Positions 245-36,833 of a DNA stretch of 53,135 nucleotides are shown here, piece after piece; within the stretch, counting starts at the first letter, position 1, and each line of letters starts with the position of its first letter. Where the stretch lies: assembly GCF_004010195.1 (NCBI RefSeq), contig NC_057718.1:99728730-99781864 (forward strand). Direction: 5' to 3'. Under the pieces are notes generated by a model. The model had not been told where the DNA came from. It did no database searches and worked only from the letters and a program-made list of their open reading frames with translations. A program made the translations under genes and the position numbers. This DNA is from Chiloscyllium plagiosum. Lineage: Eukaryota.

Positions 245-353
245 GAGAACATCAAAGAACTGAAGAACAGATCCCTTGGGGAAATGAACACCGAAGAAGT
301 TTGTGAGTGGGTCAGAGGGCTGGGACTGGAGAGGTGTATTCCTACAATCAAAG
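245..353 (+). CDS. Unnamed SAM-RA-CC-PDZ gene, exon A (first in window): SAM domain N-half
   Basis: Acceptor ttgttatttctttag, donor AAG|gtgaca, phase 0 to 1. Translates ENIKELKNRSLGEMNTEEVCEWVRGLGLERCIPTIK, matching the SAM 'xxEEVxEWLxxLGLxxY' pattern. Confidence 0.85.
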
Positions 354-865
354 GTGACATTCATGCTAAGAGCCTCTTTGGCCCAGTTTCAATAACACTT
401 CATAAAGTGCTGTGCAAATTGTCCCTGCTTTTAGCACAGCTGTTTAATGTCTGTTGCTTCAGGTTTCCGTAATGCTTCCAGTTCTCAGCTCCACCACTAG
501 ATCATGGGGAATACACACTATGTCAGGGGCCGCTGTACATTTTACTAAACATTTTCTGTAAATGGAGCCAGATGGTGACTCCTCTGGTGGTGCTGGTGAT
601 ATGTTTCACTTCTGGTTCACCAGCAGCCACACGACCCTTCAAAATCCCGGCGTTACTCTCATTCCGGGCCCCTTGAGCATTCCACAGAGTTAAGTGTTCC
701 TCCTCTGACATCCATGGGGTTGGAGACTGAGGGCCTGAGACCTGGAGTGATCTCCCTAAATCCGTCTGCCACTCTTCCCAATGAGCAGCTGCTGAAAGGG
801 GAGCATGAGCGGGAGCCATATTGTTGTCAAGCTGGGTGTGTGGTCTGGTTGGCATGGCATCCCAA

Positions 866-1207
866 TGGTACAGTGGCTCAGTGGTTAGCCCTGTGGCCTC
901 CCAGCGCCATGGACCCAGGTTCGACTCCAGCCTCGGGTGACTGTCTGTGTGGAGTTTGCACGTTCTCCCTGTGTCTGCGTGGGTTTCCTCCGGGTGCTCC
1001 GGTTTCCTCCCACAGTCCAAACAAGTGCAGGTTAGGGTGGATTGGCCGTGCTAAATCACCCATAGTGTATGGGTGGATTAGCCATGGGGAATGCAGGGTT
1101 ACAGAGACAGGGTACAGGGTTAGGTCTGGGCCAGATGCTGTTCAGAGGATAGGTGTAGACTGAATGGGTTGAATGGCCTGCTTTTGCACTGTAGGAATTC
1201 TATGATT
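866..1207 (+). mobile_element. HE1-type tRNA-derived V-SINE
   Basis: A box TGGCTCAGTGG, B box GGTTCGACTCC, V-domain ctgtgtggagtttgcac...ggtttcctccgggtgctccggtttcctcccac, and a CR1-like tail. Confidence 0.9.
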
Positions 1208-1521
1208 AACTATTGGCGGGGGTGGGGGGGGTGCGTTTGGGGGTGGCGCGGTTGGGTGGGGATGAGAGTTCCTGCTTGCTTTGGTCTTATGGTGCCAGCT
1301 TGTCGGGCATTGGCAACTGAGCGGCGTCTCGGGCAGGACTGAGGGACCCCCCACCCCCCCAGCAGACCACCCCCCTGGTAGACCAGGCACCTTTCTGTGT
1401 GAGCCACAGCTGCTCCAGTGACATCCAAGGCTGGGGGAAGGGAGCCACCATTTCCTGTCGCGAGGGCTCTGCATCGACCTCTGATGTTTTAAACTGCACC
1501 TTTCCCCTTCTGCCACCCCAG

Positions 1522-1680
1522 AGAGCAAATTGCGAGGACAGCAGCTGGTGTCCATTGACCTGGACACTCTCGCCCATCTTCAGTTGGAAACCATTGAGGA
1601 GAAAGAGATTCTCCTGGCGTCCATTTACAAAGAGCTCCACCCAATGGACACAGGCAGCCAACGTCTTGATGATCTGCTCG
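1522..1680 (+). CDS. Unnamed gene, exon B: SAM domain C-half
   Basis: Acceptor tttccccttctgccaccccag, donor TCG|gtaaga, phase 1 to 1. (E)SKLRGQQLVSIDLDTLAHLQLETIEEKEILLASIYKELHPMDTGSQRLDDLL continues the SAM fold. This frame is absent from the ORF track. Confidence 0.85.
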
Positions 1681-2221
1681 GTAAGAACTGACTGGGTGCA
1701 GGGAAGTCACACCAAACCCTTAGCTCTTACTTTAGACAGGACTGAGGGCTTTAGGGTGGGATTCCTGTGGAGGAGTAGGGGTGAGAGGGGCAATTAGAGG
1801 CTGAATGGGGGAGAGAGAGAGTGAGAGCAAAACACTGGGCCGTTGATAGCAAGGAGCAAGTGTTGGTCATGTGGATGTCCGAGAGAAAAGGAGTGTTTGA
1901 AGATAGCAGACAGAGAAGGACAGAGTTCAGGAGACTTAAAGGGAGAAAGAATTGGCAGATAATCGGAATTTTTACCTTTACAACACATGCCACACTGTTA
2001 CTAACCAGAACTTTGCAAAGCAGTATGTCATCCGTCAGCTATCTCTCTCTCTCTCTCTCTCTCTATTTCTGAACCTATTGCCATTACCAGGCATTTCCCA
2101 TATAAATCTTTCTAAAATTTTCTTTATCTGGTCTGCAAACCACAGTGTTTATATGTTTAAAATGCAATGAAAATGAATGGGCTGAGGCCTCGCTCTCAAA
2201 ATAAGACATACAGAAATTGCA

Positions 2222-2381
2222 AAGTTAAAAATCACACAACACCAGGTTATAGTCCTACAGGTTTAATTGGAAGCACTAGCTTTCGGAGAGCTGCTCCTTC
2301 ATCAGGTGATAGTAGTCTATAACCTGGTGTTGTGTGATTTTTAACTTTGTACACCCCATTCCAATACCGGCATCTCCAAAT
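2222..2381. mobile_element. Miniature PLE-derived hairpin element
   Basis: aaagttaaaaatcacacaacaccaggttatag and its reverse complement. TSD cagaaattgca at 2211-2221 and 2382-2392. Confidence 0.85.
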
Positions 2382-2396
2382 CAGAAATTGCACACA

Positions 2397-3277: not shown

Positions 3278-3380
3278 ATATTTTTACGGCAACACCTGAT
3301 CAACTCATTATTTCTGTTAAGTTTATACTGGAGATGTCGCAGGCTAGATTATACATTGGGAGCTGGTGGGACTATCACAG
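3278..3380 (+). CDS. Unnamed gene, exon C (linker)
   Basis: Weak acceptor ccgttag, donor CAG|gtaaaa. 103 nt, phase 1 to 2, which is the phase change needed between exons B and D/E. (D)IFTATPDQLIISVKFILEMSQARLYIGSWWDYH(S). Confidence 0.55.
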
Positions 3381-4428: not shown

Positions 4429-5143
4429 NNNNNNNNNNNNNNNNNNNNNNNNNNNNNNNNNNNNNNNNNNNNNNNNNNNNNNNNNNNNNNNNNNNNNNNN
4501 NNNNNNNNNNNNNNNNNNNNNNNNNNNNNNNNNNNNNNNNNNNNNNNNNNNNNNNNNNNNNNNNNNNNNNNNNNNNNNNNNNNNNNNNNNNNNNNNNNNN
4601 NNNNNNNNNNNNNNNNNNNNNNNNNNNNNNNNNNNNNNNNNNNNNNNNNNNNNNNNNNNNNNNNNNNNNNNNNNNNNNNNNNNNNNNNNNNNNNNNNNNN
4701 NNNNNNNNNNNNNNNNNNNNNNNNNNNNNNNNNNNNNNNNNNNNNNNNNNNNNNNNNNNNNNNNNNNNNNNNNNNNNNNNNNNNNNNNNNNNNNNNNNNN
4801 NNNNNNNNNNNNNNNNNNNNNNNNNNNNNNNNNNNNNNNNNNNNNNNNNNNNNNNNNNNNNNNNNNNNNNNNNNNNNNNNNNNNNNNNNNNNNNNNNNNN
4901 NNNNNNNNNNNNNNNNNNNNNNNNNNNNNNNNNNNNNNNNNNNNNNNNNNNNNNNNNNNNNNNNNNNNNNNNNNNNNNNNNNNNNNNNNNNNNNNNNNNN
5001 NNNNNNNNNNNNNNNNNNNNNNNNNNNNNNNNNNNNNNNNNNNNNNNNNNNNNNNNNNNNNNNNNNNNNNNNNNNNNNNNNNNNNNNNNNNNNNNNNNNN
5101 NNNNNNNNNNNNNNNNNNNNNNNNNNNNNNNNNNNNNNNNNNN
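4429..5143. other. Assembly gap (715 N)
   Basis: Run of N. Confidence 1.
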
Positions 5144-5400
5144 NGGGTGGTAGGGGGGCGTGGACCTGACCAGGTAGTCACGGAGGGAACGGTCTTTGCG
5201 GAAGGCGGAAAGGTGTGGGGAGGGAAATATATCCCTGGTGGTGGGGTCTGTTTGGAGGTGGCGGAAATGTCGACAGATGATTTGGTTTATGCGAAGGTTG
5301 GTAGGGTGGAAGGTGAGCACCAGGGGCGTTCTGTCCTTGTTGCGGTTGGAGGGGTTGGGTCTGAGGGCGGAGGTGCGGGATGTGGACAAGATGCGTTGGA
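5144..5400 (-). mobile_element. Penelope-like element fragment (RT-to-endonuclease linker)
   Basis: DRTPLVLTFHPTNLRINQII.RHF.HLQTDPTTRDIFPSP..AFRKDRSLRDYLVRS. Confidence 0.85.
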
Positions 5401-6553: not shown

Positions 6554-6592
6554 CCCTCGTAGGGCTTCCTACATCTTGCAATCCCCTTTCAA
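6554..6592 (+). CDS. Unnamed gene, exon D (39-nt symmetric exon)
   Basis: Acceptor gcttttcatttgtag, donor CAA|gttagt, phase 2 to 2. PRRASYILQSPF(K). Confidence 0.55.
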
Positions 6593-6862: not shown

Positions 6863-7362
6863 NNNNNNNNNNNNNNNNNNNNNNNNNNNNNNNNNNNNNN
6901 NNNNNNNNNNNNNNNNNNNNNNNNNNNNNNNNNNNNNNNNNNNNNNNNNNNNNNNNNNNNNNNNNNNNNNNNNNNNNNNNNNNNNNNNNNNNNNNNNNNN
7001 NNNNNNNNNNNNNNNNNNNNNNNNNNNNNNNNNNNNNNNNNNNNNNNNNNNNNNNNNNNNNNNNNNNNNNNNNNNNNNNNNNNNNNNNNNNNNNNNNNNN
7101 NNNNNNNNNNNNNNNNNNNNNNNNNNNNNNNNNNNNNNNNNNNNNNNNNNNNNNNNNNNNNNNNNNNNNNNNNNNNNNNNNNNNNNNNNNNNNNNNNNNN
7201 NNNNNNNNNNNNNNNNNNNNNNNNNNNNNNNNNNNNNNNNNNNNNNNNNNNNNNNNNNNNNNNNNNNNNNNNNNNNNNNNNNNNNNNNNNNNNNNNNNNN
7301 NNNNNNNNNNNNNNNNNNNNNNNNNNNNNNNNNNNNNNNNNNNNNNNNNNNNNNNNNNNNNN
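6863..7362. other. Assembly gap (500 N, probably a placeholder size)
   Basis: Run of N. Confidence 1.
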
Positions 7363-8282
7363 CACACCTGTCATTTAACAAGATCATCTTAATAGTGTTT
7401 CAAACTCCCCACTCCTGTCTACTGCCAATAGCTTTTCATTGTCTTACTTCACAAGAATCTGTCTGTCTCTTAATTAAGGATCTACTTCCCTTTCCCTTAA
7501 AAAATATTCAATTGCCTCATCTCCAAAGGGAGCTCCAAAGTTGTCCAACCCTTCAGAGATGAAAGATTTTCTATCCTAGTCCCTAGTTTTAAAACAGCAT
7601 CCCCTAGTTCTGCGCTCACTGACAGAAAGATACATCCTCTCCACATCCACCCTGTCAACACAACGCAGCATCTTGCATTCTCCCAGCGAGCAACACTTCC
7701 TGCCTATCCAATATTTCCTCAGAAGACAACCCACTCATTCGAGGTATCAATCTAACAGCCCTCCTCTAAACCACCTCCAACAATGATTTTGAGTTTTCTC
7801 ATTCATTTCAAGGTAGATTGTCTCAAATTATTGGCAAGAATTTTCTCCCCTTACAAAGTTGTGATATACTCTGAGAGAAATGTTGCTCTCATCCAATCCC
7901 ATCTCTTCTTGTTAAAAGGTGGTCTTGTCTGACAACGCTTCAGATAAGACAGGTGTATAACTGGAATGTCACTGAAAAGAGCGATGTGTCACTGAAGCTT
8001 TTCATTTTGCACTCATCAGGACACATGAAAGAATGCCAAACTTCAAACGATCACAACAATTTCCAGTACAGGGGAAAAGGAGTACAAAATAAAAAGCATT
8101 GGCTACCTGCAGGATTGATGCAAGGATGTCAAATTTTCCAAATGCCACACTTCCCTTCTCAAGGTCACTCATTCCTGTGGCACCGAGAAAACTTCACCCA
8201 TTCGTTCAGTGGTTCACTCATCCCTTACTGCATTCTGAAACCACCCAAACCAGGATGGTTTCTGATGTAATCTCATGGGGTT

Positions 8283-8680: not shown

Positions 8681-8893
8681 AGTTGATTGGATCTGCATTG
8701 TTGGGATCCACCTGAGCCTCTCCCCTCTTTCCTAATCAGTAACCTTAAGGAACATCCACAGAGTGGATTCCTTGACATTCCGAGAGGTCTGGAAGCAGGA
8801 AATGCCAGGACACTTGGCAGAAGGAAGTCAAGTCTGCAATTCTGTGTGTGATAAATATGAGCTCACTTTGTGTATTACGTTAATTTTATTCAG

Positions 8894-8958
8894 GGAAGCT
8901 GATGCAGTAGAAGATAAACGATTGATAAAGTCTGATCTGGTCAATTTAACAATAAAAG
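8894..8958 (+). CDS. Unnamed gene, exon E (start of RA/ubiquitin-like domain)
   Basis: Acceptor taattttattcag, donor AAG|gtaaaa, phase 2 to 1. EADAVEDKRLIKSDLVNLTIK. Confidence 0.75.
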
Positions 8959-11357: not shown

Positions 11358-11498
11358 CCTTTAAGAAAAACCTGCAGTTGAAGGTCCCGAGGAATTCCAC
11401 AGTTGCTAAAGTAACGGATGCGGGCCGGAAGATCCTGGGACTGAAGGAAGACGCCAGGCACCTGTCCCTCAATCTCATCGCCAGCAAAACAGGCAAAC
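11358..11498 (+). CDS. Unnamed gene, exon F (RA/ubiquitin-like core)
   Basis: Long pyrimidine tract ending tatttcag, donor AAC|gtgagg, phase 1 to 1. (A)FKKNLQLKVPRNSTVAKVTDAGRKILGLKEDARHLSLNLIASKTGK. Confidence 0.8.
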
Positions 11499-13465: not shown

Positions 13466-13471
13466 CCTTTA

Positions 13472-14020: not shown

Positions 14021-14139
14021 TGATTGAGGAGCTGCCAGCAGAGATGCAGATAAGCGAATTGAAGGCTTTGGAGAGAAAAGATCTCAAACTGCAACTGTGC
14101 AGGAAAGCAAGTCACAATTCCAATGGCATGGAGAATGGG
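14021..14139 (+). CDS. Unnamed gene, exon G (end of RA/ubiquitin-like domain)
   Basis: Acceptor tgtgtttgccaacag, donor GGG|gtaggt (alternative in-frame donor TAC|gtgagt at 14166), phase 1 to 0. (L)IEELPAEMQISELKALERKDLKLQLCRKASHNSNGMENG. Confidence 0.75.
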
Positions 14140-14852: not shown

Positions 14853-15614
14853 AGATCTATCTTTTTTTGAGGTTGCTTAAAGTTTTGGCCTTCTGTGTGC
14901 TCGTCTTGGTAAGTATAAAATGAAACATTTTGTTAACATGCCTTGTTTTCTCAACACGACTCCACTCATGTCGGAATGGGAGGTGAAAAGCTAACGTAGC
15001 TGAAGCTAACAAAGTAAATCCATCTTTGAAAGAAATGCAATAAAATGCTGCTTCTCCCTTTTAGCTGATGGCCCACATTGTTGAAAGCAGTGACTGCGAC
15101 AGTATTCACAAATTAACAGGAATTTCATATCACCCTGACCCCAAAATCCCAGGCAGCTTTTATTTTTTACTACTGTTCCACAAAAGAATCTTAGCATTTT
15201 TGCTCTATACAGTCAGGAAATGGATAAAACTGAAAACAACGACATGGGGTTCTGCTCGATATTGTCAAATTACAATAGTTACTGCAAAACAGGTTGAATT
15301 GTTTTTTTATTAACAACTAAAAGTCATTCCTAGAACTTACCAAAATATTCCAAGCCAGCTGCTTACTATTTCCTGTCTTCATGACACTTCTGACTGTCTG
15401 ACCTGGTCTGGATGGGATAATTACCAACTTTACCAAGCTGTGGATGGGCTGATCAGACCGAACATTCAGCACCTTTTTCTCCTGTAGTGTAAATTGTGAT
15501 TGTTTGAATTTAAATATTTTTGCATGTGTCCTGATGAGTGTAAAATGGAAAACTTCCACAAAATGCTCCACTTTTTAGCTATATTAACTGATATCCTCTC
15601 TCTCCCTCTCCCAT

Positions 15615-21949: not shown

Positions 21950-22096
21950 GTGCCAGAGTCTGGCTTTGCTTCAGTTTCGCCTCTCAGCATTCCGACGCCT
22001 GGAGCTCGGATCCGTCAGATGGAGTTGAGAGCTCAAGAAGACGAGATAAGCAAATTGAAGCAGCTCATAAAAAGCATCAAAGCGAGTCATCAGCAG
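21950..22096 (+). CDS. Unnamed gene, exon H (start of coiled coil)
   Basis: Acceptor ctcttccccgtctgtctag, donor CAG|gtaatg, phase 0 to 0. VPESGFASVSPLSIPTPGARIRQMELRAQEDEISKLKQLIKSIKASHQQ. Confidence 0.85.
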
Positions 22097-22194
22097 GTAA
22101 TGGTTCTTGTTACATTAATGAACCCTGGCTGCAGCAAACTCCTCATTTTCAAATGTTGCTGTCATTTTGATTGAATTCATCATTCAAGTATAAG

Positions 22195-22760
22195 TGTGTG
22201 TGTCAGAGAGTATGTGTGTCTGTGTGTGTGAGAGAGTGTGCACTTGCGTGAGAGTATGTGTGTGTTTTTGTATGTTTGTGTGTGTCAGAGGGTATGCCGG
22301 TGAGAGCACGTGTGAGTGTGTGTATGTTTGTAAGTGCATGTGTCAGAGGGTATGTGTGTCTGTGTGTGTGAGTGTGTGTGTTTGTAAGTGTGTGTGTCAG
22401 AGGGTACATGTGTCTGTGTGAGAGAATGCGTGTGCGTGTGTGAAGAGAGAGAATGCATTTGTATGTGTGTCAGAGAGTATGTGTGTCTGTGCGTGTGAGA
22501 GAGTGTGTGTGTCAGAGGGTACGTGTGTCTGTGTGAGAGAATGCATGTGTATGTGAAGAGAGACAGTGTGTTTGTATGTGTGTCAGAGGGTATGTGTTTC
22601 TGTGCGTGTGAGAGTGTGTGTGTGTGTCAGAGGGTACGTGTGTCTGTGTTTGAGAGAGTGTGCATGTGTGTCGGAGAGTATCAGTGTCTGTGTACGTGTG
22701 TGTGTTTGTATGTGTGTGCGTGTGAGAGAGTGTGTGTGTCTGGCTGTGTGTGTGTGTGTG
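22195..22760. repeat. GT/GA-rich compound minisatellite
   Basis: Recurring tgtgtgtcagagggta(t/c)gtgtgtctgtg. Confidence 0.9.
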
Positions 22761-23898
22761 TTGAAGGGGTGAGTGAAAAGAAAACTTGAAGGGGAATTGT
22801 CAACCAGATGCTGACCATTTTCCATTGCGAGGTATCAACCATGTGTGTTGCTTTTCCACCTCCGACTTCATAAAACATTCCCATCAGATCTACTGCGGAA
22901 TTCCCAGACTTGATTAACAGCCGTCATTAGTCTGAGCACATTGCCCAGTGCAAATAACTGGAGGTGTTGGGATTCCAGGTCCTCCGTACTTCAGTGAGAA
23001 TGTTTGGAGGTCAGGAATATCTCATCACTGGGACTTAAAGTAAAAGACATATTTTCTCATAACTTCAAAGGGATTCAGATATTGACACTTGCCTCTGAAT
23101 CAGACATTGGTGACGTGCCTAATTACTCAAGTGAGGTAACAGGTATTAACATGACCAGACATATGCAAGAGGCTTGACTCCATCCAGAACAGAACAGTCT
23201 GCTCATTGGACACCCCATCCATTAAAACATAGGAGCAGAATTAAGGCCATTCAGCCCATCGAGTCTGCTCCGCCACTCTGTGTGATCTGAAAATCCTCGG
23301 CTCCGTTTTCTTGACCTTTCCTACAACCCTTGATTCACTTTCTGATTAGAAAGCTTTCTCTCTCAGCCTTGAATATAGCTTATGGCCCGGCCAACACAGC
23401 TCTCTGCGGTAAGGAATTCGACAGATTCAATATCCTCTGAGAGATGACATTCACCCTCATCTCTGTCTTAAATTTCCACCTCTTTCCACATCACCTCCCT
23501 CTACCGTGGTTGCACAGAAGCAGCCGTGTGTGTGCCATCTACAAGATACACTGCAGCGATTCACCAAGGCTCCTCCAACAGCACCTTCCAAACCCATGAC
23601 CTCTACATCCTAGATTGACAAGGGCAGCAGACACATGGGAAGCCCCTGCAAGTTGCCCTCCATCCTGACTTGGACGTTTCTCACTGCTCCTTCGCTGTCA
23701 AGTTCCTGAAACTCCCTCCTTAATAGCATTGTGGGTGTCTCTGCATTGATTCACAGAGGTAGCTCATTACCACCTCCTTAGGGGCAATTAGGGACAGCAA
23801 CAAATGCAGGGCCCAGCCAGCGACACCCAATCTCGTGAATGCATTTGCAAACATTGAAATATTCCTCAGGGAGTTCACAAAGCTTTCTTGCTCTCCAG

Positions 23899-24077
23899 AC
23901 CCTCCAGCTGCTGCAGTGTTCCCGCACCCTGCATCGAGAGGCAGTCTACCTTCTCACAGAGTCTGTCTGTCCCACAAATCCACAGGAGGGCTCATGTCGT
24001 GCTGATGCTGAACTGAACAAGAAGGAAATGTTCATCCAGCGACTAACCCTGGCACAGAAAGAGCTGGCGAACGAGAG
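23899..24077 (+). CDS. Unnamed gene, exon I (helical/coiled coil)
   Basis: Acceptor ctttcttgctctccag, donor GAG|gtacag, phase 0 to 2. TLQLLQCSRTLHREAVYLLTE...ELNKKEMFIQRLTLAQKELANE(R). Confidence 0.8.
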
Positions 24078-24119
24078 GTACAGGCCTTACTGAATGGCAC
24101 AGCCCAGATTACCATCTTA

Positions 24120-25500
24120 AATTACCGCGAAAGGAACTCTATAGCCTTCTGGACTCAATATCAAGTTCATCAATTCCAGGGCTGGAGCTTCTCCCATGTC
24201 CTTACACTAGCCCCCGCACCCCAGGCCTTGTTATCTCATTGTCTGTCTTTACAAAGCACCCATTATTAGCCACTAACAATCCTCGTTAAGAGCTATTCAT
24301 TAATTCATCCAGTGCTCCTGCTGTGGTCTTCTCTACATTGGTGAGACCCAGCATGGAGTAGGTAACCATTTTGCTGAGCATCGTTGCAAGGCCCTAACTG
24401 GTCAGCCTGATCTCCCGGACATCCGCCCATTTCGATTCCCTTTTCTGACAAGTCCAACCTCAGTTTCCACCATTGCCATAGTGCATCAGACCACATATTG
24501 GAAGAACAACACCTCATCTTCCGCCTGGGCAGCCTATAGCCCAGAGGACTCGACACTGAGTTCTCCAATTTCAAATAACCTTCCCACCCATTCTCCGGCT
24601 CCCTTCCCAGCCCCATCTCCTCCCTTCCATTGCACCTCCTGCCTCACGAGGTTCACTATCTCCCCACCACCAATCTCATCATCTCCTCTCCACCTCCTTG
24701 ACCTGTCCGTCTTCCTTCCCACCTCTCCGCTCCACATTTCCCACTGACTATCACGATAACCCTCCACCTATTGCTATCCCAACTACCTTTCCCCCAGCCC
24801 AACTCCACTCTCTATATTTATTTCTGATTTGGAGATGCTGGTGTTGGACTGGGGTGGACAAAGTTAAAAATCACCCACCACCAGGTTATAGTCCAACAGG
24901 TTTATTTGGAAACACTAGCTTTCAGAGTGCTGCTCCTTCATCAGGTAGCTATGTCATAAGACACAGAATTTATAGAAAAGATTTATAGCAAAATTCTGTG
25001 TCTTATGATCCTGCTCCACAGCTGCCTGATGAAGGAGCAGCGCTCTGAAAGCTAGTGCTTCCAAACAAACCTGTTGGACTATAACCTGGTGTGGTGTGAT
25101 TTGTAACTGAGTCCACAGTTTGCGCAAATTATTTCTTGAGCTCTCTTCCTCCTCCCCCATCCTGATGAAAGGTCTTGATCCGAAACATAGATTTCTCCAC
25201 TTCCCTGATGTTGCTTGGCTTTCTGGGTGCTTCCAATCTTCGGTTTGTCTATATTGATTCTCCCAGTCTGATCGGTACCCACTCCTTTGACTGTCCAACT
25301 GTTCTTCTCTCTCTCTGGGCTTCATCCCCTCCCATCACTTACTCCTTACCCCTCTCTCCTCACCCTGTCTTCTGCATATAAGCCGACATTTTCCTGGCTA
25401 CCATCAATTCTGAAGAGGGGTCACTAGACCTGAACCGTTAACTCTGATTTCTCTCCACAGACCTGCTCAGCTTTTCCTGCAATTCTTGTTTTTTTTTGTT
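24120..25500 (+). mobile_element. Nested PLE 3' fragments, including a hairpin element at 24829-25110
   Basis: LYIGET...F.EH...LEEQHLIFRLGSL.P.GL..EFSNF, plus several hammerhead-like termini. Confidence 0.8.
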
Positions 25501-25619
25501 TACAATCTTAAATTGATGGCGGGTCTGGAAAGGTGGTTGGTTTGGCTCCAACTGAAGGCGTTGTGAACGCTGCACTCAGGGGGTTAGTGAACGAGATTGA
25601 CTCGGATGGTGAAGGGGGC

Positions 25620-27150
25620 TGAGAAACTGCATGGAGAAGATTGTCCAGGGGGTTGACAGGGTCAATGCTGAGAGGATGTTTCCCCCTCATGGGAGAGTCC
25701 AGGACCAGAGGGTATAGTCTCAGAATAAAGGGGCACCAATTTCAGACTGAGATGGGCAGGAATTCCTTCTCTCGGAGGGTTGAGAGTCTTTGGAACTCCT
25801 TGCCACGGAGGCTGAGGTAAGGTTATAGAGACAGAGAATGTTGGATCAGCCATGATCCTATTGAATGGTTGAGCAAACTCAAGGGCTGAATGGCCTCCTC
25901 CTGATCATAATTCTGATGGCCATATGGTTGTCTTCCTCACAGCACAGAAGATTTGAGGAGATTTGGTAGAGGTACTCAACATTATTAATGTCTTTATTAG
26001 AGTCAGAGAGATGTACAGCACGGAAACAGACCCTTCGGTTCAACCAGTCCATGCCAACCAGATATCCTACATTAATTTCATCCCATTTGCCAGCATTTGG
26101 TCCCTATTGCTCTCAACCCTTTCTATTCATATACCCATCCAGATGCCTTGTAAATGATGTAGTTGTACCACCCTCCACCACTTCCTCTCATTTCATACAC
26201 GCACCACCCTCTGCGTGAATAGGTTGCCCCTTAGGTCCCTTTTAAATCTTGCCCCTCTCACTTTAAACCTATGCTGTCTAGTTTTAGATTCCCCCACCCC
26301 AGGGAAAAGACTTTGTCTGTTTATCCTATCCATGTTCCTCATGATTTTATAAACCTCTGTAAGGTCACCCCTCAGCCGCCAACACTCCAGGGAAAACAAT
26401 ACCAGCCTATTCAGTGTCTCCCTCGAGTGGCAGAGGGATTGGTAACTAGGCAACAAAAATTTAAGACCATAAGGCATAGGAGCAGAACCAGGCCATTCAG
26501 CCCATCGAGATGGTGGCTGGTCTGATAACGCTCAACTCCAATTTCCTGCTTTTCCCCCAGAACACTTCATTCTCTTACTGATTACAAATCGGTCTCTCCG
26601 TCTCAGCCTTGAATATACTCAGTGATCCAATCTCAACAGCCCTCTGTGGTAAAGAATTCACTCCCCTCTGAGAGAGGGAGTTCCTCCTCATCTCTGTCTT
26701 AAATGGATGCTCCCTTACGAAGGAGATGGACAAGAGAAACAGAAGCGATTGTTTTGTTCCAGACAGTGAGATGTGGTCTGGAACAGTGATCATAGTAGAT
26801 ATAATGTTGACTTTCCAAAGGCATGTCAAATCCTGGGAACACTTGACTGGATGAATGTGAAAAGGATGTTTTCTCTTGCAGAAGAATCTAGAACAGGGGC
26901 CATAGTTTAAAGATAAGGGGAACCCTCTTTTTTAAGACAGAGATAAGAAAACATTATTCTTTCTCAGTCTTTGGAATTCCCTTTCTCAGTTATGGTGGCC
27001 AAATGACCTGTCCCTGTTCTGTATTGTTCTGTGTTCAAAAGGCAGTGAATGTAGAGTCTTTAAATATTTTTAAGGCAGAGACAGATAGATTCATGATTCC
27101 AAAGGGGATGAAAGATTATCCAGGGATGTAAAGTTGAGGTTAAAATTAAG
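25620..27150. mobile_element. Cluster of nested CR1 3' fragments on both strands
   Basis: Several CR1 ORF2 C-terminal and tail pieces, e.g. 25998-26415 (-) RLRGDLTEVYKIMR. Confidence 0.8.
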
Positions 27151-27256
27151 TCAGTCATGACTTTTTTGATTGGTTGTTGGAGAGGGGTTTTAAAGAGGAG
27201 TGAATCCTGTCTTCAGCAGCACAACCTGATCTTCATTTGGAGCTCCTTACCATTAC

Positions 27257-27572
27257 GGGTGGCCCGGTGGCTCAGTGGTTAGCACTGCTGCCTCACAGCA
27301 CCAGGGACCTGGGTTCGATCCCACCCTGGGTGACAGTCTGTGTGGAGCATGCACATTCTCCCTGTGTCTGCGTGGGTTTCCTCCCACTATCCAAAGATGT
27401 GCAGGTCAGGTGAATTGGCCATGGGAAATTGCCCAGAGATATGAAGGCTAGGTGGGTTAGCCATGGAAAATACAGGGTGAGTCTGAGAGGGATGAGGTCT
27501 GGAGGGTTGGTGCAGACTAGATGGACTGAATGGCCTCTTACTGCCCTGTAGGAATTTTATAATTCTCTGATT
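27257..27572 (+). mobile_element. HE1-type V-SINE
   Basis: Head, V-domain and tail all present. Confidence 0.88.
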
Positions 27573-27719
27573 CCTGCAAACTCTGGAGGGCACAGATCTT
27601 GTCTCAAACAACAGCTACAACAAAGGTTGCTGGCAGCATCTATGAAGAGAAATCAGAGTGAATGATTCGAGTCCAGTGACCCTTCCTCAGGACTGATACA
27701 TGTCTCCATCTCTGCACAG

Positions 27720-27791
27720 AGGACAATCCCGTCAGTGCCGGGGTCACCCTGCTGCTGCTGTTCACAGATGTGAAAATAGGAATGATCTGTC
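27720..27791 (+). CDS. Unnamed gene, exon J (72-nt symmetric exon, possibly skippable)
   Basis: Acceptor tgtctccatctctgcacag, donor GTC|gtgagg, phase 2 to 2. GQSRQCRGHPAAAVHRCENRNDL(S). Confidence 0.55.
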
Positions 27792-27989
27792 GTGAGGTGA
27801 CTGGTCTCTGGCAGATCACTGAACAATTTACCTCACTGTAGAACTGTTGAGCAGAGCCATCTGGTGTACAGCCTGAACATTTTGTTCATTTGTACACTCA
27901 TGTATCTGTGCAGCAATGATGTGATAGAGCGAGACTTCTAGTTTGGAAAATTTCGGCAATCGCTTCTTCTATAACGAACCGATGATCAT

Positions 27990-28800
27990 TATCAGTCATG
28001 GCATAGATTATGAGTGCAGGGAAATCCTGTTGAAACTGTACAGAACTTTTCTTCAGCCACATATGGAGTACTATGTGCAGTTCTGGTCCCTACACTATTG
28101 GAAGCGTGTGATTGCACTGGAGGGGGTGTGGAGGGGATATTGCCTGGGATGGAGCGTTTCAGTGATGAGGAGAGAATGGATAAGGTCAGGTTGTTTTCTT
28201 TGAACAGAGAAGGTTGTGTGGGGAGTCCTGATGGAGGTGTTTAAATTGATGGGGGAGGGGCATGGACAGGGTGGATAGGAAGCAGCTGTTCCTCTCATAT
28301 GAAGGGTCAGTAATAAGGGGGGCATAAAATGGAAGGCAGGAGGTTTAGAGGTGATTAGAGGGAAGATCTTTTCACCCAGAGGGTGGTGAGGGTCTGGAAT
28401 GCGCTGCCTGGGTGGGGAGATGAGGCAGGGAACTTCACAACCTTTAAAAGGTAATTGGATGAGCCACTTGAAATGTCATAACGTTCCAGGATGTGGGGCT
28501 AAAGTGGGAAAGTGGGACATGTTGAAATAGTGGTGTACCTTCGGTAGTACAGACATGACAAGCTGAAAGGCCTCTGCTATTCTATATGATCGCATTATTC
28601 AACAATTTTGAATTTAATTTTAAATCACTTTTTTCAAGACAGAGGTAGACAGGTTCTTGGTTGGTAAGGGGGTCAAGGGTCAATGGGAGAAAGCAGGAGA
28701 ACAGGGTGGGGGCTGAGAAACATTTCAGCCATGATCGATTGGCTGAACAGACTCGATGGACTGAATGGCCTAATTCTGCTCCTATACCTTAAGGTCTGAT
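27990..28800 (+). mobile_element. CR1 LINE 3' fragments
   Basis: LLKLYRTFLQPHMEYYVQFWS...EERMDKVRLFSL. Confidence 0.8.
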
Positions 28801-29108
28801 GGTCTATGTGAAAATGTAAGGGTAAATCCTAAGTATTAGAGTCAATAAATTCATGCTATAATTTGTCATCGACTGTGCAATGGAATTATGATATATATTG
28901 TCCATTGATGCACTGAATTCCAATGTTTCAAGATTAAATCTCAGGTTCCATGAATGCACATTGGAAAGTAGTAGGCCATTCAGCCCACAGGAAGGATGTG
29001 ATCCTGAATCAATAAAATGAGGCAGCTATCCTCATCCGCCTTGTGAAGGGATTGAGCAAGCTGGACATATTAATTCAAATAAGATGGTTACGATGAAACT
29101 GTCGGCAC

Positions 29109-29412
29109 GTGGTGGCACAGTGGTTAGCACTGCAGCCTCACAGCACCAGTGTCCCCGGTTCGATTCCAGACTCAGTCTGTGTGGAGTTTGCTCATTCTCC
29201 CTGTGTCTGTGCGGGTTTCCTCCAGGTGCTCCGGTTTCCTCCCACAGTCCAAAGATGTGCAGGTCAGGTGAATTGGCTGTGCTAAATTGCCCATACTGCT
29301 AGGTTGCACTAGTCAGAGGGAAATGGGTCTGGGTGGGTTACTCTGCGGAGGGTGGGTGTGGACTGTTTGGGCCGAAGGGCCTGTTTCCACACTGGAGGGA
29401 GTCTAAAAAAAA
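29109..29412 (+). mobile_element. HE1-type V-SINE
   Basis: Head, V-domain and tail ending in an A-run. Confidence 0.88.
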
Positions 29413-31094
29413 ATCCGTTTTGCTCATAGTGAAAACAACTCAATCACTTCAATAAGAAAAGTGAAGGACAAGTTTTGCACAGGAACCTCAAAGATTGCAG
29501 TACTGTATCAATAATGGCATTTGGGTGGAGTCTTTAAAATATCCCACGACATTTTGCAAGAATCTCATCAAACAGAGCTTGACTACAATATAACAATATG
29601 GAGGTGCTGGTGTTGGACTGGGGTGGGCAAAGTTAAAAATCACATGACACCAGGCTATAGTCCAACAGGTTTATTTGGAAGCACTAGCTTTCAGAGCGCT
29701 GCTCCTTCATCAGGGTAGTAATGATGAAGGAGCAGTGCTCTAAAGCTTGTACGTTCAGGATGTAAAGGATATAAAGGAGGAAAGAGAGGAGAAGAGGTTT
29801 AAGGATGGAATTCTAGAACTCTGGGCCCTGGCAGCTGCATGTCAGTGGGATGTTGGTGTTGGGAATCTGGGATCCTCAAGAGGCTAGATTTGGAAAGATC
29901 TCAGAGCCAAAATGAAATAAATAGACTTGTATACTTCAAAGTGGCTGGCCAGTTACGCCAACGCATCTCCTTTACCAGTCTTCAGTGTCTTTACCTTTTG
30001 AGAGGGTTGTAAGAATCTGAAAATGAAAGTACATTATTATCAGGAGCTACAGTAGGTCAGTGAGGATGCGTGATAAATGAAAGGATAAATGTGTGTGGGT
30101 TAGTACACAGACTGTAGAGTTTGGAACTCCCAGACAGCAGAATGTCAGAGGTCAGCTTTTAGATGTGCTAACTTTTTTCGATTTATTATTGTCACATGTG
30201 CCTAAGTCGAAGAGTGCGGTGCTGGAAAAGCACAGCTAGTCAGGCAGCATCCGAGGAGCAGGAGGGTCAACGTTTCAGACATGAGCCCTTACCTAAGCAT
30301 GGTAAAAAATTCTGTTTTCACGTGCAGTACAGGTGGACCATACCTACAATGTTAAGCTGCAGAGAAGATGCACAAAAAGCAAGATCAACATTAGATTTGA
30401 GAGGTCCATTCAGAAGTCTAATAACAGCAGGGAAGAAGCTGTTCTTGAACCTGGTCTTGGTCAAATTCTGGAACTCCCTCCCTAACAGCCCTGCAGATGT
30501 ACCCAGAACCATGGACTATGGCAGCTCAAGATGACAGCTCACTACCACCTCCTTGAGGACAATCAGGGTTGGGCAAGTTTCTGGCTTTGCCAGCAATGCT
30601 CACAGCCCATGAGTGAGTAAAAAAATAATGAATTGGTTACTCTGATAGACAAACAAATGAATCCAGAAATGACAAAAGGAAATAAGGATTATTATTACTG
30701 AAAATTTCTCTGACATGATGCATTTCAGTGATAATGTTTCATTCTATTAATGTCTTTCTTTCTGTGGTAGTAATAACTCCGTACGTGCACAAAGAATGGC
30801 CTAGCTGGAGTACATTAACCCAAATGCCTTTATAGAAACGACTTGGCTCATTTGAATCCTGGACTGACCTTGGTCATCTGAAGGGGGTTTGGGGAGTGGG
30901 GTGGGGTGGAGGAGGGGGAGTGTGGGGTGGTAGTCTAAGAGGAATTTTCCAGAACAGTTGGACCCTGCAATTTCTGCTTTGCCTTCCCCAGGAGCCTATC
31001 TAACTGAGGTTTGGTAAGAGACACGGGTTGAAAATGTATTGAAGAGGTGTTCAGGCATGCTATCCAGCCGTGATGGACAGGTGATGGACAGGTT

Positions 31095-31605
31095 CTAGAG
31101 TCACACAGCACAGAAAAGAGTCCCGTTTGTCTGCATTTAGCGAATCCCTCTAAACCTTTCCTATCCATGAAGCTGTTCAAATGTCTTTTAAATGTTGTAT
31201 GTGTACCCGTCTCTACCACTTCCTCTCGCAGCTTGTTGCATGTACACACCCCACACTGAGTGAAAAAGTTGTCCCTCAGGTCTCTCTTAAATCTGTCCCC
31301 TCTCCCCTTAAACCTATGCCCTCTAGTTTTGGACACCCCCCCCCAATCGCGGGGAAAAGACCTTTGCTACTCACCTTTACTCTGCCTCTCGTGATTTTAT
31401 AAACTTCTATAAGGTCACCTCTCAGTTTCGATGCTCCAGGGAGAAAATGCCAAGACACTAATAAATCAAACCTTCCGGTCTCAGTATCACACTTTGTTGC
31501 ACCCTTTTCCAGTTTAATAACATCCTTCCCAAAGCAGGGTGACCAGAATTGTACGCAGTACTCCAAGTGTGACCTTATCAATGTATTGTACAGTCGTAAC
31601 ATGAC
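31095..31605 (-). mobile_element. CR1 LINE 3' fragment
   Basis: LRLYNTLIRSHLEYCVQFWSP...LRGDLIEVYKI. Confidence 0.85.
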
Positions 31606-31859
31606 GTACTTTGATGCACCAACTGAGTTTGATCTGATTGCCACAATGTTGTAACAAATACAAACATCCTACTTCATTTAAATATACGCCTGACTGGTAT
31701 TGAAAGGGTTAGTATGAACACCATGTTGACCAAGAGCGATTTCAAGTGAATAAATAAAACAAGAAACCACTAAGTTTGCTTAAATTTGAGCACAGTTGGA
31801 GGATCTCAGTAAGTTGGAACTAAATGAATGTTTTGTCTCTCTTTGCCTGGGTGCTGTAG

Positions 31860-31989
31860 CTGCTTTGACAAAGGGCTCCTTGAACAAATGAAACAAGACT
31901 ATCAGATTCTGAAGGAAAAAGTCTTTACCTTCTATCGAACACAGGAACAGACAAAATGGAAGAACGTTCAGGAGTACCTGAGAACAAAG
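31860..31989 (+). CDS. Unnamed gene, exon K (helical)
   Basis: Acceptor ttttgtctctctttgcctgggtgctgtag, donor AAG|gtatac, phase 2 to 0. CFDKGLLEQMKQDYQILKEKVFTFYRTQEQTKWKNVQEYLRTK. Confidence 0.8.
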
Positions 31990-32171
31990 GTATACCCTGA
32001 ATACCTCACTGTTTCTGTAACAATGATCTGAAGAAATTAGGCCTTTGAATATAACTAGATTATCTCCTTGCGAAGTGTTTTATGATTGATGGTAAATTGA
32101 AAGGCTCTTGTATCATTTCCCCAAAGCCTCACACACAGTAAGAATGCTTTGTATCATGTGTATGTTCGCAG

Positions 32172-32353
32172 GCAGTCGGCAAGCTGCAGTCGATGACGTT
32201 GTCACAGCTCATTGTACCCCATTCAATGGCACTGCTGGTGAGGGTGCAGCTGACAGTAAGGCCTGGTCACTGTGGAGTCACCGTGAGATGGTGTGTAGGC
32301 CAAGGGCTGCAGGTTGTGACAGCAGAGAGTTCACATCTACAACCCAATGACAG
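32172..32353 (+). CDS. Unnamed gene, exon L (PDZ-like N-half)
   Basis: Acceptor tgtatgttcgcag, donor CAG|gtaaag, phase 0 to 2. AVGKLQSMTLSQLIVPHSMALLVRVQLTVRPGHCGVTVRWCVGQGLQVVTAESSHLQPND(R). Confidence 0.8.
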
Positions 32354-32544
32354 GTAAAGGTATAACTGCCATTCAGAAAGTGAAACGCAAGGTGGCGTAG
32401 CAGCATTGGGGGTGAAATACTCATGGTTGGGAGCATCAGCAACAGATGAGTATGTGCTCCTATTTGTCTTTCAGGGGATGTAGGCACCGTTGGCAAGACC
32501 TGCCATCGGTGCCCAGTGTTAAGTCCTGAAGGCTGTGAAGTTAC

Positions 32545-33090
32545 ATAGAGTTGTATGGCGCGGAAACAGACCCTTCAGTCCAACTTGTTCTAGCAAACTA
32601 GATATCCTAACCCAATCTAGTCCCATTTGCCAGCACTTGGCCCATATCAACCCATCCAGATGCCTTTTAAATGCTGTCATTGTACCAGCCTCCACCACTT
32701 GGTCTGGCAGCTCATTCCATACACACACCACCCTCTGCATGAAAATGTTGTCCCTTAGGTCCCTTTTATATCTTTCCCCTCTCACTCTAAACCTATGCCC
32801 TCTAGTTCTGGACTCCCCGACCCCAGGAAAAAGACTTTGTCTATTTACTCTATCCATGCCCCTCATGATTTATAAATCTCTATAAGGTCACCCATAGGAA
32901 GGAGACCAGAATTGCACACAATATTCCAACAGTGACCTAACCAATGTCCTGTACAGCCACTACATGACCTCCCAACTCCTGTACTCAATACTTTGACCAA
33001 TAAAGGAAAGCATCCTATCTACCTGCGACTCCACTTTCAAGGAGCTATGAACCTGCACTCCAAGGTCTCTTTGTTCAGCAACACTCCCCG
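32545..33090 (-). mobile_element. CR1 LINE 3' fragment
   Basis: MRGMDRVNRQSLFPGVGESRTRGHRFRVRG...WNELP. Confidence 0.88.
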
Positions 33091-34344
33091 GGATGTTACC
33101 TTCCTAACTGAAAAAGGAAAATGCTGTTCCCTAGTTTTCCAAAGACTTTGGAAAGGAAAGGGGCCTTTGAGATTGAGTGAAACATTACAAGAACCAAGTG
33201 TTCGAGAGTAGGATTTTGGAAAGGGAGGATTCAAATGTGAGGGGAAATTAATGTTGTTGGCTTGAATGGAAAATCAAATAGGGAGTGGACTGATCAACAG
33301 TTTAGGCTGAATGGAGTCAAGGGAGGTATAGATGAGTCTGATAGACAAGGTGATCAGGAGAGTTTGACAAAAAAGTTAAATCACATCTGCATTGGCTCAA
33401 AGAAGCTCAAGTCTCCAACATTAACAGTAACCCGTCTTCATCAATAACAACAGAAAGCACTGGAGAAACTCAACAGGTTCAGCAACATTTATGGGGAGAG
33501 AAGCAGAGTTAACATTTTGACATTCCTCAGGAAGTTCATTCCACACATGAACCACACCCTGCGTTCTGAAGAACATTCATATCAGATTTAAAGTGCTCTG
33601 CTTCTCTCCCCATAAATGTTGCTGGACCTGTTGAGTTTCTCCAGTGCTTTTTGTTGTTATCGATGAAGACGAGTTATTGCTAATGTTGGAGACTTGAGAC
33701 TCCTGACCCTCATTTCTGAAGAAGGGCTTTTGCCCATAACGTCAATTCTCCTGCTCCTCGGATGCTGCCTGACCTGCTCTGCTTTTCCAGCATCATTCTC
33801 TTGACTGTTGGACCGACAGGTCTCTTTCCATGCTGTATGGCTGGAATATGGGGTTTTTATGCTGTTGACAGAAGAGGGTGAGGGTGCTCAGAGCAAAAGA
33901 CAAACAGATTAAAAGACTAATAGTAGTTAAGCAGATATAGAGATGTTAAGTAGGTGCCAATAAAAGTTATGCAAAGGAGAAAATAGGTTCACTCGACCTT
34001 AATTGGATTGGGGCAAGAGGCAATTGAATGGCATTGCCAGTATGCTCACTGCACCTCTACCTTACTGAGCAGCTCACTGTCCTTCTGAAGCTTGGTCAGG
34101 ATATGCCCAAGGTATGTCTGGTTTGGACCTACTATCTCATTCAGCTTTAAACTCATTTATCGTAAAACATTCTGACTTTTCCTCATGAGGTAATCATGTA
34201 AATTCCCCACTCATGTTGTGTCAGGAAGATATTAGCTGTGAAGAAAGTTTTTTGGCTTACAGTGAATTCATCAATTTGCTGTTTAGCTTTTGGAAAAGGT
34301 TCACCTGAAATTATAACCCTGCTCTTTCATAAGACTATAACATT

Positions 34345-35340
34345 AAAAAGAATAATCCTTTATCCCCTTACTAATCAAGAACCTATCCATCTCTGTCTTA
34401 ATTGGAATACTGAATACAGTTCTGGTCACCACATTACCTAAAAGGATGTGGATGCTTTGGAGAGGGTGCAGAGGAGGTTCACTAGGATGTTGTCTGGTAT
34501 GAAGGTGCTAGCTATGAAGAGATGTTGAATAGTTTAGGATTATTTTCATTAGAAAGGCAGAGGTTGAGGGGGGAACCTGATTGAGGTCTGCAAAATCATG
34601 AGAGGTATAGACAAGGTGGATAGCAAGAAGCTTTTTCCCCAGAGTGGGGGACTCAATTACTCGGGATCACAAGGTCAAGGTGAGTGGGGAAAGGTTTTGG
34701 GGAGATATGTGTGGAAAGTTCTTTATGCAGAGGGTGGTGAGTTCCTGGAACATGTTGCCAGCGGAGGTGGTAGAGGCAGGCACGATAGTGACATTTAAGA
34801 TGTATCTAGACAGATACGTGAACGGCCATGGAGCAGAGGGATACAGACCATTAGGAAATAGTTGACAGGTTTAGATAGAGGATCTGGATCAGTGCAGGCT
34901 TGCAGGGCTGAAGGGCCTGTTCCTGTGCTGTACTTTTCTTTGTTCAATGATTTGGGCTCCACAGCCCTCTGCTACAATAGGTTCTGTAGATTCACCACCC
35001 CCTGGCTGAAGATATTCCTGATCTCAGGGCTGTCCCTTCACTCTTGAGGCTGTGCCCTCCCCATAAGAGGAAATATCTCCTCCACCTCCACTCTCTCCAG
35101 GCCTCTCAGTGTTCTGCATGTTTCAATCAGATTCCCTTCATCCTAAACGCCAGCGTCCTCAACCGCTCCTCATATGACAAGCCCTTCATCCCTGGAATCG
35201 TTCTTGTAAACCTCTCCATCAACACCAGCACATCCTTACTTAGGTATAGGGCCCAAAACTGCTCACAATATTCCAAATGCGGTCTGACCAGAGTGTTATA
35301 CAGCCTCGGCAAAACATTTCTGTTCTTGTATTTCACTTCT
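34345..35340. mobile_element. CR1 (+, ~34400-34945) nested in a CR1 (-)
   Basis: + strand MRGIDKVDSKKLFP...; - strand LYNTLVRPHLEYCEQFWA...LSYEERLRTL. Confidence 0.8.
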
Positions 35341-36044
35341 TGAATAAAAGCAGCTTCACTTCTTATCAATATGATCCCAGATAATCCCTAACAGCAGCCT
35401 ATCAGATTGTTTGAATGTTAAACAACAAGACCCCCGCCTCGTCATGGCAACATGGAACTTTCACTGAGCTCAATGCCTCTTGATCATGTGCCTTTACCAA
35501 CTGCAGAAAAGTAGGCTTATGAAATTTCAAGAACAGCAAAAAAAATAGAGCAGCGCAACATCTGCACTTCCACATGTTTCTACATTACTATAATTTATCT
35601 GACCTTTTCTCAATACAGCTGAGTTTTCATACAGTCTTCCACCTACTAGAATGCTGTTCTGAGACATCTCCAAGCACCCAACCTGAAAAGTAATTTCAAA
35701 AAGCCAGGACATTGCCCAAAACCTTCCAAACCCACCACCACTTCCACCCAGAAGGACAAGGGCAGCAGATACATGGGAACACCACCACCTTAAAGTTCCC
35801 CTCCAAGCCACTCACCATCCTGACTTGGAAACATATGCCGTTCCTTCACTGTTGCTGGGTTAAAATCCTGGAATTCCCTCCCCAAGGGCATTGTGGGTCA
35901 ACCCACAGCACATGGGCTGCAGCGGTTCAAGGCGGCAGCTCACCCCCACCTTCTCAAGGGGCAACTAGGGTCAGGCAATAAATGCTGGGCCCAACTACTG
36001 ACGCCCATATCCTACAAAATGGATTAATGAAAAGCAGCAAAACA

Positions 36045-36395
36045 GAGTGTACTCAGGAGTACAGCATTAGTGTGCCTTACAGATGAGACATTAAACCCAG
36101 AGCATGCCTGCCTTCTCAGCTGGATGTAAGAGGTTGCATGGTGTCATTTCTAAGACAAGCAGGGGAGATTTCCATCATGCTCTGACCAAAATTTATCCTT
36201 CAACTAACATGACTCAAACATGAAAATCAATTTGTCTGGGATGTTGCTGTTTGTGTGACCCAGCTGCATGCAAATTTCCCTTGGACTTCGACTGCCCCGT
36301 TTCCCACATTACAAACAGTCTCGCCAATCCAGATGGACTTAATTGCCTATAGAGTGCTTTGGACGTTCTGAGGTAGTGAGAAGTGCAAGTCTTTC
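36045..36395 (+). mobile_element. Degenerate Deu-domain SINE (SacSINE1/AmnSINE1-like)
   Basis: cagatgagacattaaacc...ggatgtaa...gcaggggag...tttatccttcaa resembles the Deu domain as recalled. Confidence 0.6.
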
Positions 36396-36706
36396 TTACA
36401 TCAATCACCACAGACCCAATGGTTTCAAGCACAACAGTGTCGCTCCAGGGAACAAGGAGCAGTTCCTTTAAGGTCTGCTTTCCCCGTGAGGGCCCAGAAA
36501 CCTTTCCTGATTGTGAACATCAGGAAGCTGGGTCCTATAGGGGGGTGTATGGCCATTGTATAATCCCACCCAAAAGTCCTTAACCCAGTGAAATTGTCAT
36601 GTGGATGTTTGGAACTCCAAAATGTATCATGACAGTGTGCTCAGCAGCTGTAATTCCAAAGCAGTGTTGCCAGTAATTAATGTGCTTGCTTCCTGCTTTC
36701 TTGCAG

Positions 36707-36833
36707 ACTTGTGGAAGTGAATGGGATCTGTGTACTGGATGCTTCAGAGGAAGAGCTGATGGAATTACTGACAGCACCAAGTGCAGAAATTCTGGTACTG
36801 AGAGATCTTGCTCCCTCTGCCCCAGAACCTTAA
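36707..36833 (+). CDS. Unnamed gene, terminal coding exon M (PDZ-like C-half, stop TAA)
   Basis: Acceptor cttcctgctttcttgcag. (R)LVEVNGICVLDASEEELMELLTAPSAEILVLRDLAPSAPEP*. Splicing to exon L creates the PDZ signature LQPNDRLVEVNG. Confidence 0.85.

Follow-up and report, generated by a model that had tools for sequence, protein, structure and literature searches.

A bamboo shark gene encoding a SAM, ubiquitin-like/RA, coiled-coil and PDZ protein probably related to insect Sprite

The stretch analyzed here (the window, in its full length) covers 53,135 nucleotides (nt) of the genome of the bamboo shark Chiloscyllium plagiosum (NC_057718.1, positions 99,728,730 to 99,781,864 of the forward strand). 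Between its positions 245 and 36,833 lie ten coding exons of a real shark gene that has so far not been the object of any study, and that is already in the database as the uncharacterized LOC122553279, with XP_043552802.1 (870 amino acids, aa) as its protein model. The product carries SAM, ubiquitin-like/RA, coiled-coil and PDZ regions in this order, and sequence comparisons indicate that it very probably belongs to a bilaterian family including insect Sprite and proteins of amphioxus and hemichordates. We give about even chances to the complete reading of this Sprite-related protein as a likely membrane signaling scaffold. The individual domains are all of known kinds; their combination, the link with the Sprite family and a candidate calcineurin dock are new.

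Gene structure and correction of the database model

The first-pass annotation of the window had claimed 13 GT-AG exons joined in a frame of 523 aa. It listed exon lengths alone, and the coordinates were recovered by a search on length, phase and splice score. The recovered chain had 1572 nt with a single stop, the terminal TAA, so that the claimed stop-free frame was reproduced. However, the openness of a frame alone is no proof of its exons. All four combinations of candidate exons that were tried yielded an open 1572-nt frame, and intron 24078-31859 contained 20 phase-compatible pseudo-exons at the same splice-score threshold; as a consequence, phase compatibility proves nothing. Support for each exon was measured against 21 full-length family proteins, with a threshold of at least 10 bits. 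Ten exons were each supported by 2 to 20 of these proteins, whereas the candidates for the 103-, 39- and 72-nt exons had no support in any of the 21 and were rejected as spurious. Half of the candidate 72-nt exon at 25461-25532 is repeat, and homologs splice the exon at 23899 straight onto that at 31860. Supported exons, rejected candidates and assembly gaps of the window, and the coding exons upstream of it, were as follows (fractions refer to the 21 family proteins).

245-353, +, linker and first SAM half (19/21; exact match to P0019; weak SAM_2)
1522-1680, +, second SAM half and first helix of the post-SAM hairpin (20/21)
8894-8958, +, linker and first RA/ubiquitin-like strand (2/21)
11358-11498, +, RA/ubiquitin-like core with conserved basic patch (14/21)
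14021-14139, +, end of the RA/ubiquitin-like domain (9/21)
21950-22096, +, linker and start of the first long helix (6/21)
23899-24077, +, long helices 1-2, start of the Sprite-type coiled-coil core (7/21)
31860-31989, +, third long helix, aligned to the conserved Sprite helix (7/21)
32172-32353, +, short pre-PDZ helix and first PDZ half (13/21)
36707-36833, +, last coding exon, second PDZ half and stop TAA (14/21)
3278-3380 (alternative 8164-8266), +, rejected best candidate for the 103-nt exon (0/21)
6554-6592, +, rejected best candidate for the 39-nt exon (0/21)
25461-25532 (alternative 27720-27791), +, rejected best candidate for the 72-nt exon (0/21)
4429-5144, N-run assembly gap, candidate place of the hairpin exon
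6863-7362, 500-N assembly gap, candidate place of the hairpin exon
C9:99698646-99699465 (approximate), upstream coding exon, exact XP_043552802.1 match
C9:99715766-99715866 (approximate), upstream coding exon, exact XP_043552802.1 match
C9:99718712-99718841 (approximate), upstream coding exon, exact XP_043552802.1 match
C9:99726480-99726529 (approximate), upstream coding exon, exact XP_043552802.1 match

Between the exons ending at 1680 and starting at 8894, homologs encode a conserved 35-aa helical hairpin for which the window has no sequence. The search of the genome returned a single match, on an unplaced contig (G000:C94702:13647-13755): a 109-nt AG/GT exon with the right phases that reached at least 10 bits in 18 of the 21 family proteins. 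An overlap between this contig and the gap flanks was sought and none was found; we infer that the exon is likely hidden in gap 6863-7362 or in gap 4429-5144. The database model bridges the missing hairpin by extending the 8894 exon upstream to 8740, and this intronic filler (8740-8893) is supported by none of the 21 family proteins. Joined to the contig exon, the window part runs to 1467 nt and 488 aa without interruption by a stop, and in a gap-free alignment it shares 390 of 411 residues with protein P0001 of C. punctatum. A search with a single exon returned two bamboo-shark proteins at 95% identity.

XP_043552802.1 matches the ten window exons and the four upstream coding exons letter for letter. 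The first-pass annotation had proposed looking upstream for the N-terminal exons, and these four, coding for ~367 N-terminal residues, were found there. The corrected protein has ~855 aa, and the present analysis thereby corrects the database gene model. The claim that SAM and PDZ are split over exons also held, as a scan of single exons gave just a weak SAM hit, in 1 of 11 exons.

The hairpin exon was present in DNA runs X2 and X3, the depth of its X2 contig (10.4) being that of unique window pieces (~10). Four sequencing runs compared with region 23800-37400 gave repeat-derived signal, with no splice joint among those shown, and the single-cell runs, sampled at ~2% and ~6%, gave no coverage of these exons. 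The 109-nt hairpin exon likewise drew no RNA reads, and no RNA run was listed as containing the last exon; these results are not evidence on expression. The introns hold dense fragments of short and long interspersed elements (SINE/LINE) and long (CA)/(TG) arrays, for example at 15500-16900, 22190-22760 and 37270-37560. One SINE lies ~440 nt past the stop codon, ahead of the first AATAAA-type signals near 37550. An X2 contig differs from the window at 23899, 23907 and 24017, and two of these changes give residues of the sister-species protein.

Domains and predicted folds

The claimed domain order was borne out by profiles and predicted folds. SAM_2 of Pfam scored 24.1 bits, above its cut-off of 20.5, and the five-helix SAM fold was matched with a Z score of 11.3 (root-mean-square deviation, rmsd, 1.5; 68 aligned). 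The predicted model of P0001 (mean predicted local distance difference test, pLDDT, 76; predicted template modeling score, pTM, 0.36) showed a beta-grasp at 61-147, three long helices, a short helix and the PDZ at 328-406. The beta-grasp matched the RA domain of RalGDS (Z 11.0, rmsd 3.0, 89 aligned). In an alignment of 36 partly redundant rows, two positions at the end of RA strand 2 were K or R in 36/36 rows and basic residues of RA helix 1 were kept in 34/36 and 32/36. A basic patch on strand 2 and helix 1 is the GTPase-binding face of RA domains. The PDZ fold was matched with Z 12.3 (rmsd 1.7, 79 aligned), its Pfam scores being below the cut-off, and the carboxylate loop (G/Y-F/G/F) was kept in 30/33, 27/32, 26/31 and 31/32 rows.

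Searches against PDB sequences gave just weak generic PDZ/SAM matches (best E 0.00028). The top clusters of a protein atlas search were unnamed chordate SAM proteins, and all the amphioxus matches were below 0.9. An automatic 'SAMHD1' label in this atlas was dropped because Pfam shows no HD domain. The labels kinesin, spindle pole body component 110, interaptin-like and myosin-XVIIIa on some members appear to be automatic coiled-coil labels.

The protein had been set apart from CNKSR, afadin and neurabin, and nothing indicated that it is one of them. Like CNK/CNKSR, it has a SAM, then helices and later a PDZ, and fly CNK aligned by fold over SAM plus hairpin (Z 10.7, rmsd 4.2, 108 aligned). 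Unlike CNK/CNKSR, the family proteins scanned had no PH or CRIC match in Pfam, the post-SAM hairpin partly overlapping with CRIC by fold, and an RA lies between SAM and PDZ. The Rap effectors afadin and RADIL share the RA upstream of the PDZ, and the fish protein would, like them, be a GTPase-effector adaptor if its RA binds; however, it has no FHA or DIL by Pfam and carries a SAM. Neurabin has the order PDZ, coiled coil and SAM, which differs from the order SAM, RA, coil and PDZ found here.

Relationship with insect Sprite and with amphioxus and hemichordate proteins

Searching with one of the two bamboo-shark proteins brought up 18 relatives, which came from sharks, rays, a chimaera, bowfin and teleosts, and members from gar, paddlefish and lamprey were also named; the unnamed teleost relatives mentioned in the first-pass annotation do exist. 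Of 1.84 billion representatives searched with a profile, 232 matched at E<=0.001. Among the 150 listed, 27 were named, and they came from cartilaginous and ray-finned fishes, lamprey, coelacanth, amphioxus, hemichordate and cricket, with no amniote or amphibian member among these 27. The closest references of 120 of the 143 new listed matches were cichlid, zebrafish or gar. As no amniote member was named and some divergent fragments stay unplaced, the loss of the gene in mammals is graded as likely. The unplaced fragments are P0078, P0091, P0094, P0108, P0121 and P0175. Together with another divergent unnamed fragment, P0063, they are close neither to sharks nor to ray-finned fishes and are lobe-finned or tetrapod candidates.

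The architecture of the protein is not an orphan one, in view of its homology to the amphioxus and hemichordate proteins and, very probably, to insect Sprite. The relatives of the cricket match P0181 (142 matches, 120 listed) include many named sprite or sprt; the link with Drosophila CG30023 comes via these database names, no Drosophila sequence being among the 120 listed. Profiles of the fish and of the amphioxus/hemichordate proteins were colinear over 576 columns (E 1e-24). With the fish proteins, the uncharacterized XP_019617088.1 of amphioxus and XP_070572186.1 of a hemichordate have in common a colinear series of SAM, hairpin, RA, coiled coil and PDZ; they differ in carrying two SAM and two RA domains above the cut-off (RA, 57.9 and 63.7 bits), a further coiled coil and a FIP-like tail of weak score (14.7 bits, below the cut-off), and in being devoid of the N-terminal cysteine/PPTP module described below. 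In P0006, P0009, P0014 and further proteins of rays and bony fishes, the SAM region is preceded by a short conserved segment that can be aligned to the C-terminal half of the amphioxus SAM1; rays and bony fishes thus keep a half-SAM remnant of it. The mini-exon of this remnant was searched for upstream in the present genome and was not found. P0131 and P0114 (amphioxus, hemichordate) end in an FIP-like segment of Rab11-binding type, below the Pfam cut-off, and a terminal cysteine.

Comparison of the fish and Sprite profiles gave a score of 137 over 178 columns, about half ahead of the PDZ, versus 54-55 over 65-76 columns for a generic multi-PDZ control, a single sequence and not fully matched. 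Amphioxus aligned with Sprite over 289 columns (E 9e-18), Sprite N-terminal motif included. A hidden Markov model (HMM) of the fish coiled coil alone exceeded 10 bits in 27/119 insect proteins versus 0/595 locally shuffled ones, and the Sprite coiled-coil HMM scored amphioxus at 33.7 bits. The fish PDZ HMM gave insects a median of 38.9 bits versus 19.3 and 24.8 for two generic PDZ proteins. In addition, the short pre-PDZ helix and a PDZ deletion relative to outgroups were common to all groups. The deleted segment is that before a conserved beta strand, and the P0001 model has no helix at 361-369. The homology thus very probably extends beyond the PDZ to the coiled-coil hairpin directly ahead of it, with a weak signal from Sprite to fish and a strong one through amphioxus.

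Fish protein and Sprite therefore agree in the order and register of three elements, the coiled-coil hairpin, the short helix and the shortened PDZ. They differ in that Sprite has neither SAM nor RA by Pfam and has a long tail past the PDZ, whereas the fish protein ends a few residues past it and adds SAM, RA and an N-terminal motif region. Since insect Sprite has neither SAM nor RA, the family core works without them. Fly sprt and zebrafish LOC101882067, both unstudied, gain a common family, so that two genetic models can test one scaffold.

N-terminal cysteine cluster and PPTP block

The large upstream exon encodes a disordered region that is poorly conserved apart from some islands. Of the 20 proteins checked, 19 had a CC or CxC cluster in their first 50 residues or in the matching block, and its S-acylation is predicted with somewhat better than even confidence. 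The second island, PVINLI-PPTP, is kept from lamprey to teleosts. In 51 partly redundant sequences, chosen by a regular expression requiring PP[TS]P-type and FF anchors, P1, I3 and L5 were each kept in 50, and PPTP followed in 48. As shown in PMC9166766 and PMC12612047, CABIN1 and the S-acylated microprotein calcimembrin (C16orf74) dock calcineurin with high affinity through a PxIxIT motif that has a PPTP sequence behind it, and phosphorylation of this PPTP strengthens the docking. The fish block has the same P-x-I-x-hydrophobic-x-PPTP register, with 7/11 positions identical to the CABIN1 peptide as given in PMC12612047, and nearby N-terminal cysteines as in calcimembrin; with neither protein is there overall homology, the likeness being at motif level alone. 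Calcineurin docking by this block is put forward tentatively, as a motif-based prediction held at somewhat less than even confidence.

Proposed function

Exon structure, domain order, family homology, gene neighborhood and motif conservation were established directly, and every binding step of the following proposal is inferred. The N-terminal cysteines, probably acylated, would anchor the protein at the membrane, where coiled coil and SAM, a type of domain known to oligomerize, would cluster or oligomerize it. The RA domain would bind GTP-loaded Ras/Rap, an interaction predicted with slightly better than even confidence. A partner common to insects and fish would bind to the conserved core, made up of the helical hairpin, the short helix and the shortened PDZ. 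In vertebrates, the long isoform would combine this core with a lipid anchor and with a calcineurin site tuned by phosphorylation, the PPTP block possibly docking calcineurin; short teleost isoforms are devoid of this module. If the N-terminal motif does bind calcineurin, the docking rule would be widened to Ile at position 6, and Ras/Rap and calcium-phosphatase signaling would be joined on one protein.

In a broader and rather unlikely scenario, the gene would represent an unrecognized vertebrate Sprite branch. An ancestral deuterostome SAM-SAM-RA-RA-coil-PDZ-coil scaffold would have given rise, by genome duplication, to an RA-bearing and an RA-less copy beside the two Jagged genes, with loss in mammals; the former copy would have gained a palmitoylated, phospho-switched calcineurin dock that would couple Ras/Rap to calcineurin at fish membranes.

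No paper on this gene, on the mechanism of Sprite or on a link between Sprite and vertebrates was found in a search that covered mainly journals outside subscription. Data from the fly are sparse. Published work reports that sprt knockdown cut gut-tumor growth (PMC12355558, where the motility citation is an Arp2/3 paper), that sprt is expressed in the trachea (PMC5898912) and that it marks ganglion mother cells (PMC9404614); sprt also appears in a gene list in PMC9275024.

Alternative explanations

Several observations weigh against the proposed function and origin, and they were examined together with the explanations that they would favor. Within the same family, the ubiquitin-like domain could be a packing or partner module of FERM F0/F1 or UBL type that does not bind GTPases, in a SAM-clustered coiled coil-PDZ adaptor. 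The beta-grasp matches FERM F0/F1 and ubiquitin-like domains as well as it matches RA (IDOL FERM, Z 12.1; SNX17 FERM, 11.8; talin F0, 11.2-11.3), Pfam RA reached at best 18.6 bits in fish, below the cut-off of 21, and RA is absent from insects and from the shark and coelacanth paralog. In addition, the fish domain aligned weakly (4.8 bits) with the first amphioxus RA and not with the second, more basic one. Nevertheless, the orthologous amphioxus/hemichordate region is an RA above the cut-off and the basic patch is invariant at two positions in all the 36 rows, and a domain without GTPase binding is considered rather unlikely. Concerning the PDZ, class I domains have His at the first position of the binding helix; here Glu was found in 23/32 rows and His in 2, a departure from the class I pattern. 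The PPTP block might, in turn, be another linear motif (a proline-directed kinase site, a WW/SH3 ligand or part of the acidic FF block) with no phosphatase link, and to this we assign close to an even chance. Position 6 is Ile in 50/51 rows, CABIN1 and calcimembrin having Thr, the conserved block runs on into the acidic FF segment, the module is absent, by inspection, from amphioxus, hemichordate and insects, and the rows were selected on the very anchors of the motif. On the other side, the in-register identity with the CABIN1 peptide stands out amid a poorly conserved region, and from lamprey to teleosts. Finally, isoforms of zebrafish (548-549 aa) and of cichlids (604-607 aa) fall well short of the length of the shark protein, and those of zebrafish have no N-terminal module.

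The kinship itself could be questioned, the likeness to Sprite being then that of any coiled coil plus PDZ and the chordate/hemichordate family being separate from the insect gene. The Sprite coiled-coil HMM gave the fish proteins 0.7-4.5 bits (3/6 shown) or nothing and missed the hemichordate, so the direct Sprite-fish link is weak beyond the PDZ and depends in part on amphioxus; heptad patterns inflate coiled-coil scores. The family tree, from which row P0043 was omitted (anchor motif not found), is unrooted, with outgroups on long branches inside the fish group, and vertebrates have two paralogs, which bears on one-to-one orthology with insect sprt. However, both steps of the chain through amphioxus are significant (E 9e-18 and E 1e-24), the PDZ deletion and pre-PDZ helix are common to fish and Sprite groups, and the fish PDZ HMM favors insects over generic PDZ proteins. 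Hence separate families are regarded as improbable. Functional data on sprt include negative ones, since a supplement row of PMC3484668 gives its knockdown as negative in a border-cell migration screen and, in PMC3958334, its effect on mek mRNA was not confirmed. It could also be argued that the locus is decaying, conserved elsewhere and under relaxed selection or silent in bamboo sharks, as their PDZ carboxylate loop departs from the family consensus, the SAM1-remnant mini-exon was not found upstream and, in several sharks and rays, the gene model breaks off within the PDZ. This is very improbable: all ten window exons are open with GT-AG ends, the near identity with the sister species involves no indels, and the locus is colinear with catshark and rays.

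Genomic neighborhood and paralog

The gene (contig C9, + strand) is flanked on one side by a Jagged-1-like gene (99.107 Mb, -) and on the other by a BTB-BACK-PHR gene (99.92-99.94 Mb, +), which we take to be BTBD3 rather than BTBD6. Among the exons listed ab initio over ~430 kb, no clear gene was found besides the downstream BTB gene. To our knowledge, human 20p12 has no such scaffold gene. For a gene-poor site of human 20p12, PMC4467308 lists five genes within ~2 Mb, JAG1 and BTBD3 being two of them, and little further literature was found on the human JAG1-BTBD3 interval. The gene described here is a multi-domain, probably signaling gene of this interval, kept by fishes and likely lost by mammals.

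An unnamed RA-less paralog was located at G000:C10:3496050-3510905 (loci L042-L044; ~3.50-3.51 Mb). Its surroundings include a second Jagged-type gene at 2.17 Mb and, at 1.59 Mb, the closest BTB paralog; it thus has another Jagged and BTB-BACK-PHR pair within 2 Mb, in a gene order unlike that of C9. Like the C9 gene, this vertebrate paralog (catshark XP_072350330.1, coelacanth LOC102349508) has the coiled coil-PDZ core and a SAM with a matching phase-1 intron; unlike it, the paralog has no RA and, in sharks, a tandem second SAM copy. The catshark, electric ray and coelacanth paralogs also keep the amphioxus-type post-PDZ coiled coil, unlike the C9 gene. The two copies fit a whole-genome-duplication pair.

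On C9, ~135-144 kb past the window start (L032-L033), there is a tandem array of ~9 kb in which every phase has long open frames; it is probably a satellite. An intronless Ras-like copy (L061, G000:C5:123853556-123856987) with altered conserved residues and an early end is likely a processed pseudogene, and L052 is the intact intronless Rap2 of the shark.

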